A stretch of DNA of 20,000 nucleotides from an uncultured virus (IMG/VR IMGVR_UViG_3300042484_001250) (Duplodnaviria > Heunggongvirae > Uroviricota > Caudoviricetes), in IMG/VR virus record IMGVR_UViG_3300042484_001250, positions 113,286-133,285 of that record; one strand, written 5' to 3'. Made by a program: the position numbers and the translations under genes. Below the pieces are notes generated by a model. It saw only the letters and a list, made by a program, of their open reading frames with translations, searched no databases and was not told the origin of the DNA. How positions within the stretch are numbered: position 1 is the stretch's first letter; every line of letters begins with the position of its first letter. Below, one piece after another: positions 2,735 through 19,574 of the stretch.

Positions 2735-5700
2735 ATGAGTGAATTATCTAACTTTTTAGTAGAAAGCATATTAGGGGAATCTGCCGAAATGGAAAACGTA
2801 ATAGTTGTCTATTCTGGTAGATTTCAACCTTTTCATAAGGGGCACTTCGCCACATACAAACAACTTGTATCAAAATTCGGAAAAGATGATGTTTACATAG
2901 CAACATCCAATAAAACCGATAACCAAAAATCTCCATTTGATTTCAGAGAGAAAAAAACCATAATGACTAAAATGTTTGGTATCCCATCAAACAAAATAGT
3001 TCAGGTTAAAAATCCATATCAACCTACGGAAATTGTAAGTTCATACGATGCAGCTAAGACTGGTTTAATAGTTGTAGTTGGTGAGAAAGATGAACAACGT
3101 TTGGGTGGAAATTATTTTACTCCATATAAAGGTAAGGTAGAGATGGGATATTTGGATAAGGGATACGTTTATGCTTCACCTGCTCAATCAAATCCTATAA
3201 GTGGAACTGATGTTCGTAATTGGTTAAGTAAAGGAACTGATGACGAAAAGAAAGAGGGATTCTTAAAAGCATATCCAAAATTTGATGCAACTGTTTTCAA
3301 ATTTATTACTCTAAAATTAGCAAAACTTTCTGAAGATATTAACTTAGATGTGAATGTAGGTGATACTCTTTTGATGGGCAAGTTTAAGAACAAAAGAGTA
3401 GTTGTAAAAAATATTGATAAAGATGAGCATGGTATGCCAACTATCAATGGTAAGAAAGCAACTACATTTAGAATCCCACCAAAATCAAACCTATTTAATG
3501 AATCATCTAACTTTGGTATGGCTGGTGCTGAACCAGGTGAACCAAACCCAAACTACGTTGCCGATGGACAAGCTCGTATATTAGATAAAGGGAAACCTGA
3601 AGGTTGGTTTAGACAAGGTGGATACACCCAAATAGATAAACCAAAGGGTGATTGGATGCGTGGTAAGGGTAGAAAAAAAGAATCGGAATCAACATTTAGA
3701 AAAGTAACATATTCACTTAAAAACTATAAAGAATCTGAACTAAATCCAGCGCAAGACCCATACCATACTGAAGATTGGGTAGAAACTGAACCAAAGAAAA
3801 AAATTAAAAAACCAAAAAGATTTTGGGAAGATACTGAAATGGATGTAAAAATATCATTAATATCTGAAGAAGAATTAAACGAAATTGCTGAAGATTATAT
3901 AACCGCATTGGATGAAATGGGATTGGGTGGAGGAGCCGGTGTTGGTTTATCTTTACCGGGTGGATACATAAATGGTGCTCCGAAAGCAGATGATGTTGCC
4001 AAAGTAAGTAAGAAGTTGAAGAATAAAGGTATGAGTGGGTATGAGGAGGTTGATGAAGAAACTATTTTAGAATATAGTGGAAATGGTGCATTCTACAACG
4101 ATGGTAATGCAACAAGTGGTACAATGTGGAATGCTGATTGGGATGATTACAATAATGCAGAATACTATTTAGATAATTTAGAGGGTTGGTGTTTTTATCA
4201 CGAAGACCCATCTGAATATGAAAAGAAAAAATCAGTAGACCAAAAGTTACCAACGGATGACCAAAACGATGGAAAAACTGATAAGTACAATCGTATATTA
4301 AAATACAACTTTCCTAAACCAGAAGATTTAACGGAGATGGCTAAATCTGATTTAGACCAGGTTGAGAAATATGCTGACCAACAATTATCTCCCGAAGATA
4401 TTGAATTGGGAAAGGAAACTGACCATTTTTTCCAAAGATTAAATGACCCTCGTAATGGTAAACAAATATCAGCAGCCGAATTAACTGGTTTCTTTAAAAG
4501 ATTGGCAAAAAATAAAAAGAAATTTTTAGATTTTGTAAAACAATATAAGGAGTTTGTAGTTAAAGATAAGAGAACAAACATCAATATTCCATTTATGACA
4601 GTAGCAAACAAATTGATTGCTAAAACCATAATGAGAAAGGATGATTTCAAATCTTCAACACCAGTTTATGTATCCGAACAATCTTTGAGTGAAATTACAA
4701 AAGGTATCTACGGAAAGAAAATAAAAATCAATGGTGAAATAATTGAATTACAAGTTGAGTTAGTTGGGGCTGATAATAAAACAAATGAATTTATTACAAA
4801 AATAGTTCATATTGATAAAAAATATCAAAACAAATATCCAATTGGTTCTACACTAAAAGTACCGGCACGAATATTTAGATTACCCGGCGGTGGTTGGTAC
4901 AAAGTTAAAAATAAAGCATTTGAAGCAATAACTTCAAAAAATCATAAAGCAGATGGAACTGCTGACCACAATTTTACACAACATCATAAATCATCATCAT
5001 ATACACCTGATTATGGTTATCCTGCTGAATTAGATACAATTGATTTTGATGATGATAGAGAAATAGAACCTGGTCATCAAACGGATACAAAAGATAAACA
5101 AAACAAAGGATACGAACCTGTTAAAAAAGTAAACGAAAGTAAAGATTTAATAATTGAAGGTGGGGCTTATGGACACATGCACCATCCGTTTGATATTGAA
5201 ATGAACCTTACGTTCTCTGACCTAAAGAACATCGTTAAGAAAGCACTTACTGGAGATTTGGATGTAGCAAGAGAAAAAACCGATGGACAAGCATTGGCAA
5301 TTAGTTGGGTAAATGGAAGATTAGTTGCTGCTAGAAACAAATCACATCTAAAGAATAAAGGTGAGGGTGCTATGACAATAGGACAGGTAGCTGATAAGTT
5401 TGCTGGTAGAGGCGGACTAACCGATGCTTACAACTTTGCTATGAGTGATTTATCAAAAGCAATTGGTTCATTATCCGAACCACAAAGAAAAAAAGTATTT
5501 AATGATGGAAGTTCGTTTATGAATTTGGAAGTAATATATCCAACATCGGTAAACGTAATTCCATACAACCAACCACTATTAGTATTTCATGGTACATTTG
5601 ATTATGATATCGATGGTAATATAAGTGGTGAGAATCAACAATCAGCACGAATATTAGCTGGTATGATTAAGCAAGTAAATGCAAGTGTTCAATCCAAATA

Positions 5701-6349
5701 CACAATACAAGGACCACCAATGCAGAAATTACCAAAGAGTGAGAATTTAACAAAACTACAATCAAAGTATATGAGTATGATATCTAAACTACAAAGTGAG
5801 TTTGGGTTATCTGATTCTGATGGGGTAGCTGATTATCATCAAGCGTGGTGGAGTAACTTTGTGGATAAAAACGCAAAAGGATTAGATGCACAAGAAAAGA
5901 TTGGTTTGGTTAAGAGATGGGCATTTGGAGATAAAGGATTCAGAATAGCAACAATACAAAACCCTAAATTAAGAAGTTGGGCAGACAATACTGAAAAGAA
6001 AGACCAAGCTAAAATAGCAAAAGATAACCTAATGAAATTTGAAGAAATATTCTTAGGTGTTGGTGCAGATGTACTTTCATTTATGGAATCAGTACTTACC
6101 GCAAATCCAACGGAAGCAACTAAACAAATGGTAGCTAGATTACATAAGACGGTTGATGATGTTAGAAAGTTGGGAGACCCTAAGAAGTTGGATAAACTTA
6201 AATTAGAATTACAAAGATTACAGGCATTAGGTGGATTTGAAAAGATAGTTCCAAATGAAGGTATCGTATTTGTATATAACGGAAACACTTACAAATTAAC
6301 AGGAGCATTCGCTCCACTTAATCAAATATTAGGTCTTTTTTACGAATAA
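2735..6349 (+). CDS. Multidomain putative virion protein: N-terminal HxGH (cytidylyltransferase-like) nucleotidyltransferase, several small modules, and a C-terminal KxDG ligase-like (DUF6267-like) domain
   Basis: YSGRFQPFHKGH and ISGTDVR at the N terminus. GGAYGHMHHPFD, EKTDGQ and EGIVF...YKLTG at the C terminus. Acidic (I/L/V)xE linkers lie between modules. Confidence 0.75.
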   Translation: MSELSNFLVESILGESAEMENVIVVYSGRFQPFHKGHFATYKQLVSKFGKDDVYIATSNKTDNQKSPFDFREKKTIMTKMFGIPSNKIVQVKNPYQPTEIVSSYDAAKTGLIVVVGEKDEQRLGGNYFTPYKGKVEMGYLDKGYVYASPAQSNPISGTDVRNWLSKGTDDEKKEGFLKAYPKFDATVFKFITLKLAKLSEDINLDVNVGDTLLMGKFKNKRVVVKNIDKDEHGMPTINGKKATTFRIPPKSNLFNESSNFGMAGAEPGEPNPNYVADGQARILDKGKPEGWFRQGGYTQIDKPKGDWMRGKGRKKESESTFRKVTYSLKNYKESELNPAQDPYHTEDWVETEPKKKIKKPKRFWEDTEMDVKISLISEEELNEIAEDYITALDEMGLGGGAGVGLSLPGGYINGAPKADDVAKVSKKLKNKGMSGYEEVDEETILEYSGNGAFYNDGNATSGTMWNADWDDYNNAEYYLDNLEGWCFYHEDPSEYEKKKSVDQKLPTDDQNDGKTDKYNRILKYNFPKPEDLTEMAKSDLDQVEKYADQQLSPEDIELGKETDHFFQRLNDPRNGKQISAAELTGFFKRLAKNKKKFLDFVKQYKEFVVKDKRTNINIPFMTVANKLIAKTIMRKDDFKSSTPVYVSEQSLSEITKGIYGKKIKINGEIIELQVELVGADNKTNEFITKIVHIDKKYQNKYPIGSTLKVPARIFRLPGGGWYKVKNKAFEAITSKNHKADGTADHNFTQHHKSSSYTPDYGYPAELDTIDFDDDREIEPGHQTDTKDKQNKGYEPVKKVNESKDLIIEGGAYGHMHHPFDIEMNLTFSDLKNIVKKALTGDLDVAREKTDGQALAISWVNGRLVAARNKSHLKNKGEGAMTIGQVADKFAGRGGLTDAYNFAMSDLSKAIGSLSEPQRKKVFNDGSSFMNLEVIYPTSVNVIPYNQPLLVFHGTFDYDIDGNISGENQQSARILAGMIKQVNASVQSKYTIQGPPMQKLPKSENLTKLQSKYMSMISKLQSEFGLSDSDGVADYHQAWWSNFVDKNAKGLDAQEKIGLVKRWAFGDKGFRIATIQNPKLRSWADNTEKKDQAKIAKDNLMKFEEIFLGVGADVLSFMESVLTANPTEATKQMVARLHKTVDDVRKLGDPKKLDKLKLELQRLQALGGFEKIVPNEGIVFVYNGNTYKLTGAFAPLNQILGLFYE

Positions 6350-8736: not shown

Positions 8737-9174
8737 ATGATTAAGTTAAAATCTTTACTAAACGAAGATGAGTATATAGACCAAGCATATGCTATGGGTG
8801 ATACTCCGCAAGATAATCCAATTGATGATTATGATGAATTGGATGTTGAGCAAGAAGATATGGATGACTTTATTGCATACTTACAACAATACTCAAACGA
8901 ATTGAATGAGACAAATTGTAATTGTGTGTTTGAAGCAGAATATCAGGGAAGAGAAGTAAAGTTAGGGAAACCGATGCAAGGCGATGTAAAGAAATTTAAG
9001 GTCTACGTCAAAAACCCAAAAACAGGTAAGGTGATTAAAGTGAATTTTGGACAGAAGGGAATGGTTATTAAAAAAGACAATCCAGCAAGACGAAAATCAT
9101 TTAGAGCAAGAATGAATTGTGATAATCCCGGTCCAAGAACAAAGGCAAACTATTGGAGTTGTCGAAAATGGTAA
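8737..9174 (+). CDS. Putative internal head protein: acidic N-terminal propeptide and a basic C-terminal domain
   Basis: MIKLKSLLNE leader and acidic first half. After VFE comes a very basic domain KKFKVYV...VNFG...RRKSFRARMNC...ANYWSC, a small domain recognisable from other viruses. Confidence 0.7.
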   Translation: MIKLKSLLNEDEYIDQAYAMGDTPQDNPIDDYDELDVEQEDMDDFIAYLQQYSNELNETNCNCVFEAEYQGREVKLGKPMQGDVKKFKVYVKNPKTGKVIKVNFGQKGMVIKKDNPARRKSFRARMNCDNPGPRTKANYWSCRKW

Positions 9175-12669: not shown

Positions 12670-13257
12670 ATGAAGAATCTTTTAATAGAAACCAAATTAT
12701 TCGAAGGAAAGGTGCAAGAGGATGCTGGTGGTAGAACTATCGTTAAAGGTGTTCTTCAAAGAGCTGGTGCGGAGAATCAAAATGGTAGAGTATATCCAAA
12801 ACCTACATTGATGAGAGAAGCTCAAAAGTATGAGCAACTTATCAAAGAACGTAGAGCATTAGGTGAATTGGACCACCCTGATTCAACTGTAATCAACTTA
12901 AAGAACGTATCACACAATGTTAGAGAAATCCATTGGGAGGGCGATGATTTATGTGGTACGGTTGAAATCCTTGCAACTCCATCTGGTAATATCCTTAAAG
13001 AATTACTTAAAGCTGGTATCCTATTAGGTATATCATCAAGAGGTATGGGTTCTACAAAACAAATGGAAGGAAATAAAGTAGAAGTTCAGGAAGATTTTGA
13101 ATTAATCGGTTGGGATTTTGTTTCTAATCCATCTACACATGGTGCATTTATGGTACCTGTAAACGAATCGGTAACAAAACAAATTGGAACTGATGTTTGC
13201 GGAGATTATTGCAAAGCACAAGATTTAATGAGAGAAATTATAACTGAAATATCATAA
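12670..13257 (+). CDS. Prohead core protease (T4 gp21-like)
   Basis: NQNGRVYP, ALGELDHP (catalytic His), GISSRGMGS (catalytic Ser) and DFVSNPS motifs. Confidence 0.95.
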   Translation: MKNLLIETKLFEGKVQEDAGGRTIVKGVLQRAGAENQNGRVYPKPTLMREAQKYEQLIKERRALGELDHPDSTVINLKNVSHNVREIHWEGDDLCGTVEILATPSGNILKELLKAGILLGISSRGMGSTKQMEGNKVEVQEDFELIGWDFVSNPSTHGAFMVPVNESVTKQIGTDVCGDYCKAQDLMREIITEIS

Positions 13258-14428: not shown

Positions 14429-15943
14429 ATGATTAAATTAAATCAACTACTTAAAGAGGAAACGTTTACCGCAACTAATAAATCAACTGGTAAAACTTCT
14501 GTATTCAAATCTAAAGATAGTAGAGATGCTGCAATCAAAGCAGGTACACATGATACTATAAAAGATAAAGAACAACCATCGGCACCAAAAGCAGCTGGTA
14601 GTGATATGTTTGGTGGAGATTATACAAAAAATAGAGGTGGTGAAGCTCCTAAATCTGATGCTGGTAAAGAAGAAACTCCAAAGTATGATTTAGGTGTAGA
14701 CTCAGTTGTATATAACAAAAGAACAAAGACAGTTGGTATTGTAAGATTGGGGGATGAAAGAGGTGAAACGAAAACTGATGCAGATGGTAATGTAAATACT
14801 GATGAGTTAGAACCATACAACCCAATGAAGTTTCCATATCAAAAAGATGCACAAGTTGCACCATCAACATCAAAAGAAATTGAAAGTAGAAAGTTATTCA
14901 ATCCGTTTTCACAAAAAAATGACCCTATAAAATCAGAACCTAAAAACCAAAGAAAAGGTAATCCACAAGTAAACAAAGAAGCAAAAAAGAAAGCAGAACA
15001 ATATGGTATTACTCCTCAAAAGTTGGGTAATGAAAAATATAAAGAAGCAATGTTACAAGCAGCAGTTTCTGCATTAACTGATTCAAACTTCCATAGTGAA
15101 GCAAGAGAATTAGTTGCAGCAATTGAAGGAAAGCCTGAATTTGCAAAAAAACCGGAGTACCCATCGATGAAAGACCCTAAGTATAAAGAAAAAATGGCAG
15201 ATATTCGTAAGAATTCCGCAGATGGTTCGATTTATATGAATGGTACTGGTGAGATTGATGATTATGGTACGGATGTATCACAAGCATCTGGATGGGATGG
15301 TGTTGATGCAGCGGATAGTATTGCATTTACATTAAGAATGAATGGTTTCCATAAAGAAGCAGATTTGATTCAATCGGTATTTGATAATAAACCATATATG
15401 AAAAATGAGGGTACAATTAAATTAACAAAGTTAATGGAAAATGACCCTTGTTGGAAGGGATACAAACAAGTTGGAATGAAAGACAAGAATGGTAGAGAAG
15501 TTCCAAATTGTGTGCCTGAAGGAATTGTGAATGAGCAAACATCATATGCATTTGGTAAACAACAATATACCCAAAAAACTCTTACACCATCTCAAATTTT
15601 AGATTTAGCTACTGCATATGTAAATGTACCAAATTTGGAAAAAATTTTTAATGGTAAACTTGATAATATAGTTAATGTAGCTAATGATTTGGCTAGATTA
15701 AATGGTACTATTCAATTAGATGCAAAAACAAGAGGTAAAAAACCCGCACTTATATTATCTTTATTAAACAATAAATTAATTAGTAAAGATGATTATGTTA
15801 AATTGTATAGAAACTTAATAGAAAAACAAATATTGACTGTAAAAAGATTAAAAAATGCAGACCCAGCATCAAGAATGATAAAGGGAGCAGCTGCTAGACA
15901 AGCTTATAAAGATATGAAGGGTGAGTTTGATGAAACAGATTAG
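14429..15943 (+). CDS. Modular putative internal head/cargo protein
   Basis: Likely start at ATG 14429 (MIKLNQLLKEE), 1 nt after the upstream stop. Contains an internal leader-like IKLTKLME and a CWKGY...VPNCVP motif. Confidence 0.7.
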   Translation: MIKLNQLLKEETFTATNKSTGKTSVFKSKDSRDAAIKAGTHDTIKDKEQPSAPKAAGSDMFGGDYTKNRGGEAPKSDAGKEETPKYDLGVDSVVYNKRTKTVGIVRLGDERGETKTDADGNVNTDELEPYNPMKFPYQKDAQVAPSTSKEIESRKLFNPFSQKNDPIKSEPKNQRKGNPQVNKEAKKKAEQYGITPQKLGNEKYKEAMLQAAVSALTDSNFHSEARELVAAIEGKPEFAKKPEYPSMKDPKYKEKMADIRKNSADGSIYMNGTGEIDDYGTDVSQASGWDGVDAADSIAFTLRMNGFHKEADLIQSVFDNKPYMKNEGTIKLTKLMENDPCWKGYKQVGMKDKNGREVPNCVPEGIVNEQTSYAFGKQQYTQKTLTPSQILDLATAYVNVPNLEKIFNGKLDNIVNVANDLARLNGTIQLDAKTRGKKPALILSLLNNKLISKDDYVKLYRNLIEKQILTVKRLKNADPASRMIKGAAARQAYKDMKGEFDETD

Positions 15944-15971: not shown

Positions 15972-15999
15972 AAAAGCTTGGTAATCCCAAGCTTTTTTT
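15972..15999 (+). terminator. Intrinsic terminator
   Basis: AAAAGCTTGG (15972-15981) / CCAAGCTTTT (15987-15996) inverted repeat running into a T-tract. Confidence 0.75.
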
Positions 16000-16008
16000 G
16001 TATATTTG
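15978..16008 (+). promoter_or_regulatory. Bacteroidota primary-sigma-type promoter (-33 TTG, -7 TAnnTTTG)
   Basis: TTG at 15978-15980, 20-nt spacer, TATATTTG at 16001-16008; 20 nt before ATG 16029. Confidence 0.7.
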
Positions 16009-16028
16009 TGGTTACTATAATAAAACCC

Positions 16029-17363
16029 ATGGCAATTAAACCATTTTCAATTTTAGATACTCGCACCAAAGAATGGCAAGACCGTAAACGTTGGTGGATA
16101 CAAACCTATAATATCAAATCAGAGTTAGGTAGGGAAGATACTCAATCAAATAGTAAGTTTTGGGATGATGAAGATACTGTTTCAGTATTCGATGCTACTC
16201 TATCCGAAAAGATGTATGAGTGGTTTGTTCCAAAGGGTGGTAAGATATTAGACCCATTTGCTGGCGGAAGTGTGAGGGGAATTGTGGCAACGGAGATGGG
16301 ATTCAAATATGATGGTATCGATATATCACAAACACAAATAGATGCAAATAGAAAACAATCCGATAAACCTCGATGGATGGGTGGGGATAGTTACCTATTA
16401 TTAAATGTATTGGAGGAGAATACCTATGATTTTGTATTTACTTGCCCACCATACTACGATTTGGAGGTATATAGTGATAATGCGAATGATTTATCTAATA
16501 TGGCGGATGCACAATTTGATGATAGATACATTTCTATATTACAAAAATCAGCAGAAAAGTTAAAGAACAATAGATTCTTTGCAGTTGTGGTATCGGAAGT
16601 TAGAGAGGTATCAAAGACAGGGGATTACAAAATTGGAAAGTATAGAGGATTGGTAAACAAAACTATTTCAGCAATGGAAGAAGTTGGTTTACACTTCTAT
16701 AACGATATGGTACTATTTAATTCACAACATCAGGCTGGAAGAGTGGTAGATACATATTTCAAACGTAATCGTAAGGTAGCATCTGTTCATCAAAACGTAT
16801 TAGTATTTGTAAAAGGAAATCCTGATTTGGCAACGGAAGATATTGAATGGGATGGTACTTACAAATGTGTAGTTGGTGGAAAACAATACAAATCATTCAG
16901 AGAAGCGGCAATTTCAATAAATCCAAATGAGTTAGTAGCATCGGAAGTAGAAAGAAGATGCCTTTCACCAAAAACCAAATACAAAGGGTGGCAGGTAAAT
17001 GGTGAGGAAACATATCCTATCTTAAAATATTGTATAGATGGGTATTACTTTGAGTCTCCTGTACAAGCTGCAGAGTACATTGAATATAGTGAAACTGAAA
17101 TTCGTAATCGTTTAGAATCAAAAGCTGACCATTATAGACATTGGAAAAAGTTGGAAACTCCTTTAACAACTATTACTTATGATGCACATGAAAGGACTCT
17201 AAAGGACATCCAAGTTAGAGATAAGGTACATACGATAAGTTGTGAGGGAGAACTATTCTACACACTAAAAGATGCAGGTGAAAGATTTGGTGTATCGGAT
17301 GAACGAATCAGACAAAAAATCCAATCGGACAAACATACTGACTATTTTTACTTATTTTCATAG
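16029..17363 (+). CDS. DNA amino-methyltransferase (N6A/N4C) with three C-terminal NUMOD1/HTH-like repeats
   Basis: Motif I ILDPFAGGSVRG followed by motif IV FTCPPYY. C-terminal repeats resemble G..Y.S..EAA......I..R. Start moved to ATG 16029, downstream of the promoter. Confidence 0.85.
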   Translation: MAIKPFSILDTRTKEWQDRKRWWIQTYNIKSELGREDTQSNSKFWDDEDTVSVFDATLSEKMYEWFVPKGGKILDPFAGGSVRGIVATEMGFKYDGIDISQTQIDANRKQSDKPRWMGGDSYLLLNVLEENTYDFVFTCPPYYDLEVYSDNANDLSNMADAQFDDRYISILQKSAEKLKNNRFFAVVVSEVREVSKTGDYKIGKYRGLVNKTISAMEEVGLHFYNDMVLFNSQHQAGRVVDTYFKRNRKVASVHQNVLVFVKGNPDLATEDIEWDGTYKCVVGGKQYKSFREAAISINPNELVASEVERRCLSPKTKYKGWQVNGEETYPILKYCIDGYYFESPVQAAEYIEYSETEIRNRLESKADHYRHWKKLETPLTTITYDAHERTLKDIQVRDKVHTISCEGELFYTLKDAGERFGVSDERIRQKIQSDKHTDYFYLFS

Positions 17364-17402: not shown

Positions 17403-19574
17403 ATGCCTGCAAAATCAAAAGCACAACAAAGATTTATGGGAATGGTTCACGCCGCTCAAAAGGGTGAATTAGATAATCCATCATCGGAAGTTGAAAAAGT
17501 AGCTGATTCAATGAGTGATGCAGACGCAAAAGATTATGCATCAACTAAACACAAAGGTTTACCCAATCATGTGAAAAAAGAAAATATGGAAAAACAATTA
17601 AAAGAAATCATCCGTCAAACATATAGAGAGAGTTTGAGAGAATCGGTAAACGAAGATGCAACTGAATTGCCTCAAGCAACAATACCATCCGCTGTAAAAG
17701 TTAAATTACAAATGGCTATTGATAAAATAAAAGATTCAAAGTTAAGTAACAATGCAAAATTACAATTGGTGGCACAAGTAATAGATGCATTAGATGTGGA
17801 TAAATCTCAATTATCAAATATTGCAAATAAGATTCGTTCTAAAATGGAATCGGTAAACGAAGCTAAGATACAACCAAAAGATGATTGGGGAGTTAGATTA
17901 GTTGTGGCTATTAATAATAATGTTGCTGCATTACATACATCCGTTATAAGAGAAAAGAAAGATGTACAGCAAGCAGTTGCTGCTTTTGGTAATGTGTTAA
18001 AAAATGCTATTAAAGAAACTCTAAAGCACAAATACAAACCACATCCAAAATATACTGAAGCTGATAGCAAAATAAAAACATTTATTTCTGAACTTAAAAA
18101 GTTTGAAAATATTGTAGATATGGTTATTTCTAAACCAACAAAATCTGGTATTGTAAAATTGGATGATGCTTGGCGAAATATTTGGAATCATAAATATGGT
18201 GCGGCAATTGCGTTATCTGGTGATTTGTTTAATAGTATTATAGAAAACGAATCGGTAAACGAAGCAAAATACCCAACCAATTTATATGTTGGTTCTATAA
18301 TTTATGGACAAGGATTTACTGGATTAAAAGGAATCGAAGGTGGTAAATACTACAAAGTTGTTGAAATGGATGATACTACTGCAACATTAGCACCATGCGA
18401 CCAAAAAGGTAAGATAACAGGTTCAAAGAAAGTTAGACATAAATTAGATTCAATCGAAGGTGGTATCAAAACTGCTAAAAGAGGAGATGAAAACGGAATT
18501 GTTATCGAATCGGTTATTGTTGAAGATATTAAATCCGATATAAACAAATTCTTAGATAAATTAAACAAACAATTTCCTGAACAAGAATATACTACCGATT
18601 TCAAAGGTGGAAAATATGCTAGAATTGTTCAACAAAATAGAAAATATTCTGGAAATCGTTCTGCATGGGGATTTGTAGCAATGGAAGATAATCCATCCAA
18701 AGGATTTAAGAAAGGAGATTTATTAAAAGCAGCAGGATTTAATACACCTGCAAAGGGTGCTAGGGGTAATATATTAGATGGTACTGCAAAATATGATAAA
18801 TACTCACCAGTATATTTAAGAGAATCCGTAAACGAATCAATATCACATGAAGCAATGGGAATCGCTTCAATGACTAACACTAGAAAAGAGGCAGTTCAAA
18901 AGTTTATTGATGATAACAACTTAAATGCAAAAGAAATATTAACTCACGTTACCAAAGGCAAATTGCCGGAGAGAATTCGTTTTGTTCAGGCATTAGTTGG
19001 AACTCCTAATAATTCTTCTTTCAAATGGTATGTAAAAAATTACACAAACGAATCGGTAGTAACTGAAGGAAAGAAAGCATTCAAAATAAATCCACCAATC
19101 GGTAAAGCAAAATATAGTATTAGTGCTCACAATGGTGTATCAAAACACAAAGATGGTAGTGATTTTTGGGATATTCTTATCTTTAAGAACAAAGCAGATT
19201 TAGAAAGAAGAGCTAAATATTTTAGAGGTGAAAAATACATTGAAGAATCGGTAATCAAAGAAGGTGTTTACAAATCAATTTTATCAAATAACAAAGGAAA
19301 GTTATTCTTTAGTTTAGTTGATGATGAAACTGATAAAGTAACGGATGTTGATGCAAAGGCTTGGTTAAAATCAACTATTAAAGATAAATCATCCGATAAC
19401 TCAAAAGAATTGGTATTAAGTGCATTAGTAAGACAAATCAATCAATTTAATAAAAAAGTTGATTTTAATATGTGGGTTAATGCTAACAAACCAACTTGGG
19501 AAGAAAAGGTTAAATATTTGTTTGATAAGGGATTAGCAAACAACGTAAATAAGACTGGTATTAAGGTTCATTAA
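17403..19574 (+). CDS. Modular polyprotein-like putative virion cargo protein: N-terminal DUF3008-like domain plus seven modules separated by ESVNE/ESVxxE linkers
   Basis: MPAKSKAQQRF...ASTKHKGLP N terminus; seven ESV linkers separate unrelated modules. Confidence 0.8.
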   Translation: MPAKSKAQQRFMGMVHAAQKGELDNPSSEVEKVADSMSDADAKDYASTKHKGLPNHVKKENMEKQLKEIIRQTYRESLRESVNEDATELPQATIPSAVKVKLQMAIDKIKDSKLSNNAKLQLVAQVIDALDVDKSQLSNIANKIRSKMESVNEAKIQPKDDWGVRLVVAINNNVAALHTSVIREKKDVQQAVAAFGNVLKNAIKETLKHKYKPHPKYTEADSKIKTFISELKKFENIVDMVISKPTKSGIVKLDDAWRNIWNHKYGAAIALSGDLFNSIIENESVNEAKYPTNLYVGSIIYGQGFTGLKGIEGGKYYKVVEMDDTTATLAPCDQKGKITGSKKVRHKLDSIEGGIKTAKRGDENGIVIESVIVEDIKSDINKFLDKLNKQFPEQEYTTDFKGGKYARIVQQNRKYSGNRSAWGFVAMEDNPSKGFKKGDLLKAAGFNTPAKGARGNILDGTAKYDKYSPVYLRESVNESISHEAMGIASMTNTRKEAVQKFIDDNNLNAKEILTHVTKGKLPERIRFVQALVGTPNNSSFKWYVKNYTNESVVTEGKKAFKINPPIGKAKYSISAHNGVSKHKDGSDFWDILIFKNKADLERRAKYFRGEKYIEESVIKEGVYKSILSNNKGKLFFSLVDDETDKVTDVDAKAWLKSTIKDKSSDNSKELVLSALVRQINQFNKKVDFNMWVNANKPTWEEKVKYLFDKGLANNVNKTGIKVH
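17640..19263 (+). repeat. Dispersed in-frame direct repeat GAATCGGTAAACGAAG (7 copies: 3 exact, 4 variant)
   Basis: Exact copies at 17640, 17847 and 18249. Variants at 18507 (GAATCGGTTATTGTTGAAG), 18822 (GAATCCGTAAACGAA), 19050 (GAATCGGTAGTAACTGAAG) and 19245 (GAATCGGTAATCAAAGAAG). Confidence 0.85.

Follow-up and report, generated by a model that had tools for sequence, protein, structure and literature searches.

Integron cassettes represent ordered arrays of exchangeable small units that are separated by a repeat. Among bacteriophages, a comparable organization has been described for the PeSLs of RB49 and phi1. These elements, made up of a promoter and a stem-loop, lie between genes and mobilize entire early genes, and minicircles were demonstrated for them (PMC2839356). 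In such PeSL or Botstein-type linker shuffling, conserved repeats flank small variable units, which recombination inserts, deletes or replaces; the same paper compares PeSLs with integrons and cites Repoila 1994 for variable internal-protein loci of T-even phages that are bounded by conserved elements (PMC2839356). The other relevant system is formed by the internal proteins of T4 (IPI, IPII, IPIII), small, basic and variable products of a T4-type head module (PMC9026906; PMC12373910). Internal proteins bear targeting leaders of 10 to 19 residues, IPIII being processed at residues 8 and 10, and the T4 protease gp21 cuts after Glu in L/I-X-E (PMC9026906). Ip1, Ip2 and Ip3 act as inhibitors of Type IV restriction enzymes (PMC12373910).

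The window analyzed here, a stretch of 20,000 nucleotides (positions 113,286 to 133,285), forms the last part of the 133-kb virus record IMGVR_UViG_3300042484_001250, which is ∼70% complete. The source virus is a T4-like jumbo phage from a lake. The window contains a T4-type head module with family profile matches to Terminase_6N, Portal_T4 and Peptidase_S77, phage with the array is present in lake metagenomes, and the same array protein was also found on a contig of up to 280 kb. The closest proteases in cultured phages are those of Microcystis phage Mel-JY01 (54%) and Flavobacterium phage immuto (50%). Scaffold and capsid genes come after the array in the relative L002. Of 53 long array loci, however, no more than 37 had a head gene within the flank, which counts against the reading proposed below. 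No tRNA was found within the window and no bS21 match in the ∼70%-complete record; a bS21-like ORF was seen by eye on locus L010. Phages of Bacteroidetes that encode bS21 have a similar head region with hypothetical genes, and arrays are not mentioned in the examined part of that text (PMC9723584). Inside the head module, adjoining the array, is a gene (15978-17363) for a DNA methyltransferase whose C terminus bears an I-TevI-like DNA-binding tail; L004 and L005 have it too. A further large gene (2735-6349) encodes a 1,204-aa cytidylyltransferase-like protein that is apparently mosaic as well; NMNAT-like proteins are recurrent in cyanophage virion proteomes (PMC9602691).

The array ORF consists of eight small units and seven in-frame Glu-Ser-Val linkers, four of which read ESVNE (Table 1).

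Table 1. Features of the array ORF and of the surrounding head module (window coordinates; counts refer to 93 full-length homologues)
Feature	Position	Strand	Comment
Cassette-array ORF P0001, 723 aa	17403..19574	+	Between prohead protease and scaffold genes
N-terminal unit, DUF3008 at aa 3-57	17403..17639	+	Stand-alone homologue in cyanophage S-SCSM1
Linker 1, ESVNE	17640..17654	+	
Module A, 64 aa	17655..17846	+	In 54/93
Linker 2, ESVNE	17847..17861	+	
Module B, 129 aa	17862..18248	+	In 11/93
Linker 3, ESVNE	18249..18263	+	
Module C, 81 aa	18264..18506	+	In 55/93
Linker 4, ESVIVE	18507..18524	+	
Module D, 99 aa	18525..18821	+	In 23/93; C-terminal in several relatives
Linker 5, ESVNE	18822..18836	+	Serine is TCC
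Module E, 71 aa	18837..19049	+	In 56/93; predicted five-helix domain
Linker 6, ESVVTE	19050..19067	+	
Module F, 59 aa	19068..19244	+	In 62/93; predicted three strands plus helix; tandem duplicate in L004
Linker 7, ESVIKE	19245..19262	+	
Module G, 103 aa	19263..19571	+	In 31/93; N-terminal or internal in relatives' other genes
Prohead serine protease, Peptidase_S77	12670..13257	+	E = 7.5e-26; proposed processing enzyme
Ten-residue leader ending in L-x-E at positions 8-10	8737..8766	+	Like T4 capsid-targeting sequence
Second ten-residue leader	14429..14458	+	Same kind

The array works like PeSL shuffling and like T4 internal-protein processing and is a member of neither system, since its repeat is coding and in frame and its units are fused. 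As in PeSL shuffling, conserved repeats flank small variable units, which recombination inserts, deletes and replaces (PMC2839356), and no dedicated recombinase has been identified; in contrast to the PeSLs, the array linker is not a promoter plus stem-loop but a 15- to 18-nt in-frame coding sequence in a late gene. It shares with integrons the ordered, exchangeable small units with a repeat between them. In contrast to integrons, its units are joined in frame, and neither an integrase nor an attC-like inverted structure was found. With the T4 internal proteins it has in common the T4-type head module, the small, basic and variable products and the proposed cut after Glu (PMC9026906; PMC12373910), as well as ten-residue leaders ending in L/I-x-E, which here sit on the genes neighboring the array. 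However, the T4 proteins are encoded by separate genes with a leader each, whereas a single ORF encodes many array units in fused form, its internal sites being mostly V-x-E; no sequence or fold match of the T4 internal proteins to array units was found. Known members of DUF3008 and DUF7717 are likewise stand-alone proteins of ∼70 to 115 aa, while here they appear as cassettes in an array. Judging from the sequence, we consider it reasonably probable that the ORF encodes a shuffled cassette polyprotein of head-packaged proteins, with the linker serving as a likely DNA joint and a likely protease site.

An earlier, sequence-only reading of this locus had proposed that modules are gained, lost or shuffled in frame at the linker, and suggested comparing indel boundaries in related genomes with the repeat. 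Both the breakpoints in relatives and the integrity of the modules strongly support this proposal. We used 120 listed proteins from a total of 788 homologues. Among the 119 homologues listed in the match comparison, 403 of 451 ends of ungapped matches (≥75% identity) fell no more than 8 aa from a linker, with 21.5% expected, the match ends not being independent as the homologues are related to one another. Modules were all-or-none, 461 of 466 module matches spanning at least 85% of the module. The 93 proteins with the same start displayed 31 combinations of the window's modules; their order changes (module D, for example, can come last), F-F is a duplication, and modules such as G move between genes. 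In L004, L005 and L006, the nucleotide identity, inspected by eye, switches in or at the edge of a linker at 13 of 13 changed junctions. The linkers at these junctions are single and intact, neither broken nor doubled at random. L004 has TCA where both flanking copies in the window have TCG and is thus no simple deletion product.

Breakpoints at domain edges are also expected from selection alone. According to one alternative, which we regard as unlikely, the linker is a protease site or spacer, breaks occur anywhere by illegitimate recombination and only those at module edges survive, so that peptide selection and codon context suffice and the likeness of the linkers at the DNA level reflects default coding and shared ancestry. 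The single and intact junction linkers argue against this explanation. As to the earlier claim that shuffling is mediated by microhomology, the relatives bear out exchange at the linker; microhomology would be its likely cause rather than a mark of the breaks that survived. No linker-to-linker joint or circle was observed in contigs from 4 of the 20 runs with this phage, contigs being a source in which rare variants are dropped. Loose ends at 17865, 18244, 18270, 19058 and 19247 (among 24 of 124 rows listed) lie near linkers and may belong to other strains.

The linker codons of this genome at first appear to be conserved beyond the peptide. Copies 1 to 3 share perfect runs of 16, 16 and 17 nt, in agreement with the earlier statement that three linkers are identical over 16 nt, and GAA TCG GT(A/T) is indeed used in six of the seven linkers, the exception being copy 5 with TCC. 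The alternative coding also occurs, with GAA TCA GTA found at 6086-6094 (residue 1118 of ORF 2735). For pairs involving copies 4 to 7, perfect runs extend over only 5 to 13 nt, which is short for a recombination system said to need patches of <50 bp (PMC2839356) and counts against the linker as a joint. Under a neighboring-base codon model, the probability was 0.002 to 0.004 for at least six of seven TCG and 0.003 for at least three of four identical ESVNE linkers. The tripeptide background of the 133-kb record gave a different picture: ESV elsewhere is encoded with GAA TCG in 6 of 13 cases and VNE as GTA AAC GAA in 8 of 10, these default codings being found in non-head genes, too. On this background, which is small, the probability of three identical ESVNE out of four rises to 0.135 to 0.16, and TCG in 6/7 linkers versus 6/13 elsewhere yields p = 0.16 (Fisher). 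With default codings at P ∼0.14 to 0.16, the window alone is no proof of DNA-level conservation, and in this genome the explanation by peptide selection and codon context fits.

The sequence-only reading had itself cautioned that TCG before G is not rare in the window, and this effect turned out to be larger than anticipated. TCG accounts for 18% of serine codons before G and for 2 to 6% before other bases (140 TCG versus 141 TCA before G; 64 versus 698 before other bases), and Ser, Thr, Pro and Ala alike have elevated NCG and reduced NCA codons when G follows. We conclude that TCG usage here mostly reflects local codon context. Moreover, the serine codon at the junctions of close relatives is often TCA or TCC, so that TCG itself is not a conserved sign. 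TCG-GTA is largely the default coding in this genome, whereas the variant breakpoints clearly do coincide with the repeats. Depletion of CAG, GTTAAC and CGAG pushes codons toward the linker version, which again favors codon context. The whole record (G000) contains no GATC, with 479 expected, and is also depleted in CATG, CTAG, GTTAAC, TACGTA, CTATAG and CAG; this suggests strong restriction-site avoidance that shapes codon context. As a methodological point, silent-site identity is easily overstated here unless the tripeptide context is considered.

Across the family, by contrast with the window, sameness of linkers at the DNA level beyond codon bias is supported. Two pattern scans with most silent positions left free, together with loci found earlier, gave at least 293 loci and at least 765 nonredundant ORFs; for the first linker copy, GAA and TCN were prescribed by the scan pattern. 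In the 147 ORFs with two or more ESVNE linkers, 54% of within-gene pairs were identical over 15 nt, compared to 3.5% expected from codon use at the same locus (125 of the 147 ORFs had enough background) and to 21% for pairs between ORFs. When lineages were clustered by shared modules, pair identity fell to 0.36 with 39 clusters and to 0.31 with 25, against a cluster-level expectation of 0.03 (pooled) or 0.14 (worst case), and only 18 of the 39 clusters exceeded 0.2. This range of 0.31 to 0.54 versus 0.03 to 0.14 expected from tripeptide use is difficult to reconcile with codon context and peptide selection only, as is the near absence of AGY serine, observed in 1 of 282 linkers outside pattern-fixed positions, whereas AGT reaches 14 to 27% in comparable Ser-Val contexts (0 of 20 in one small class). 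Thus, what the earlier reading claimed for DNA-level conservation holds family-wide, and its argument from TCG does not, since TCG before GT and GTA-AAC-GAA are near default in this genome.

Linker versions were specific to lineages (TCA-GTA-AAC, TCC-GTA-AAT, TCA-GTT-AAT and TCG-GTA-AAC), varying at three silent positions, and each lay above its own di- and tripeptide background, although grouping by dominant version is partly circular. In one example, TCC-GTA-AAT was present in 62 of 81 linkers, TCC being used in 13 of 111 Ser-Val pairs elsewhere. Perfect runs had a median of 15 nt, and those of at least 25 nt were limited to 0.8% of the 519 pairs; identity was confined to the linker, and since it stops there, recent long duplications are no explanation. 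Within-gene and cross-gene identity did not differ significantly (0.50 versus 0.29; p = 0.11, n = 21), and linker identity did not fall off with distance (0.51 to 0.61). A single-genome test for any version in six other records was clear only for G001 (0.007), giving 0.04 for G002, 0.06 for G004 and 0.29 for G006, with two records uninformative. In G002, GTA AAC GAA occurs in 4 of 5 linkers and is not a default there, falling outside the six commonest versions among the 14 other VNE of that genome, which argues against codon context; the mixed linkers of G006 are what that explanation leads one to expect.

One linker version makes up 142 of 328 array linkers, and linker matches cluster in one short region per record in 5 of 5 records. 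Both features would suit a dedicated site-specific recombinase that recognizes the 15-mer in the manner of an integron, an explanation which we nevertheless consider highly improbable given the variation of linker versions between lineages at three silent positions. In addition, a search limited to tyrosine integrases (PF00589) found no match in the complete relative G006 and none in three fragments, among them the present one. G006 encodes a RecA-family protein; no RecA match was found in the present fragment. Overall, the linkers show the pattern of a short repeat in concerted evolution, which speaks for exchange that depends on homology rather than for a fixed recognition site.

We thus favor a model in which the 15- to 18-nt in-frame linker, at which whole units are gained, lost, duplicated and reordered among relatives, would likely act as a short homology joint for the general recombination of the phage. 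Crossovers between linker copies, within one genome or between coinfecting relatives, are likely to shuffle the units and at the same time to keep the copies alike. The copies would need to be identical to one another rather than to adhere to any particular sequence. Since a crossover in the linker would keep both the frame and the site, almost every exchange would yield a processable chain.

The linker peptide likely resembles a protease site of the T4 gp21 type. Inside 202 nonredundant modules, [LIV]-x-E is halved, with 62 occurrences versus 129 ± 11 expected; both V-x-E (20 versus 41) and L/I-x-E are depleted. No depletion was detected for [LIV]-x-D and [LIV]-x-x-E, nor in non-virion proteins (221 versus 218). 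As a contrary point, [LIV]-x-E-[AGS] in modules is undepleted (22 versus 23), many instances looking like degenerate linkers. Glu makes up 4.6% and Asp 7.3% of module residues. Immediately after the linker, A, G or S follows in 273 of 405 cases (67%) versus a background of 18.6%, with the linker expression requiring the final Glu. Val is located three residues from the putative cut in 361 of the 405 and Ile or Leu in 44; L/I-x-E is present in linkers 1, 4, 5 and 7 of the window, and module B has three internal I-x-E. The prevalence of Val and these internal sites speak against a protease site. The window modules have masses of 7.5 to 15 kDa and pI values of 8.0 to 9.7 (family median, 9.5). Furthermore, 61 of 91 ORFs starting with MI[KR][LM] have Glu at position 10, all of these with L, I or M at position 8, which is the spacing described for the T4 targeting sequence (PMC9026906). 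P0001 itself has no ten-residue leader and starts with DUF3008, such leaders being located on neighboring ORFs. A family-wide ten-residue [LIM]-x-E leader could tag head-packaged proteins throughout the genome. Given the depletion, the small residues after Glu and the leaders, the peptide has a selection signature of its own, and the earlier wording that set DNA conservation against selection on the peptide alone was too strong.

Alternatively, shuffling may be real and the product a single uncut multidomain protein, an internal scaffold whose linkers would be flexible spacers or would bind the core. Such a role fits both the Val at P3, which is not in line with the T4 rule, and the presence of the motif in acidic core and scaffold-like proteins (immuto gene 192). 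P3 can nevertheless vary between phages, as SPN3US shows a different P3 preference, along with multiple cuts (PMC10052503). We find an uncut protein quite improbable because the depletion of [LIV]-x-E in modules, which extends to V-x-E, is specific to this register, small residues follow the Glu, and module D and the N-terminal unit occur as stand-alone proteins. With cleavage as the preferred reading, there is a good chance that the final Glu of the linker is where the S77 protease cleaves the chain, on its C-terminal side. It would then free the units in the prohead, and some would be ejected.

In the array ORF, DUF3008 (PF11450) at the N terminus was the only family above cut-off (32.8 versus 24 bits). 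Its homologue SSCSM1_93 in cyanophage S-SCSM1 is annotated as a "virion protein"; virion mass spectrometry was performed for this phage, and SSCSM1_93 is not listed in the supplement examined (PMC9602691). Module D has a match to phrog_5014 (E = 1e-10) and is similar, with a TM score of 0.8, to DUF7717 (PF24835) clusters, which consist of stand-alone phage proteins. The whole-protein AlphaFold model was poor (pLDDT 46), while a model of modules E and F contained two confident domains (mean pLDDT 89) and a low-confidence linker, this low confidence being partly built in because no alignment row spans the linker. For E+F, no Foldseek match at E ≤ 0.001 was obtained in BFVD or PDB and an Atlas search found nothing; the best VIA match, in a comparison that hardly probed module E, was to PH-like sheets, which are widespread (Z = 5.9, 55 aligned, rmsd 3.4). 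A PDB sequence profile search returned nothing credible, Pfam analysis of 20 array proteins only DUF3008 and sub-threshold DUF5872, and PADLOC two weak, unconvincing matches. The module E pattern gave no match in prokaryote genomes, and Pfam, PADLOC and structure searches identified no module function. No paper describing the linker or the array, or DUF3008 in connection with phage, was found in the non-subscription literature searched.

Arrays with the linker occur in further contexts. Locus L065 (110-4924, minus strand) encodes a 1,605-aa array with 13 recognized linkers and entirely different modules. In L051 (2651-4372, minus strand), the same linker is found in an array beside a cytidylyltransferase-like gene, in a different neighborhood that recalls a cyanophage virion-protein cluster. 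At L296 (1335-3860), gene 192 of Flavobacterium phage immuto_2-6A, encoding an acidic head-region protein, carries ESVNE and ESLNE.

By analogy with the T4 internal proteins, released units may be ejected into the host as counter-defense or host-takeover proteins, a role that we propose tentatively. It is conceivable, if somewhat speculative, that the arrays constitute an integrase-free, in-frame cassette system in which one 15-nt word is read twice, in DNA as a recombination joint and in protein as a maturation-protease site, allowing aquatic jumbo phages to rebuild combinatorially a payload of dozens of small injected proteins that would form a large untapped counter-defense pool. Modular evolution by way of linkers has been proposed for phages, and the locus offers a concrete instance that can be tested and that operates inside a gene rather than between genes. 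A simple motif marks ∼200 distinct small proteins in our sample, which are probably delivered with the virion. Since their T4 equivalents block restriction enzymes (PMC12373910), the arrays represent a ready candidate list for counter-defense screens.
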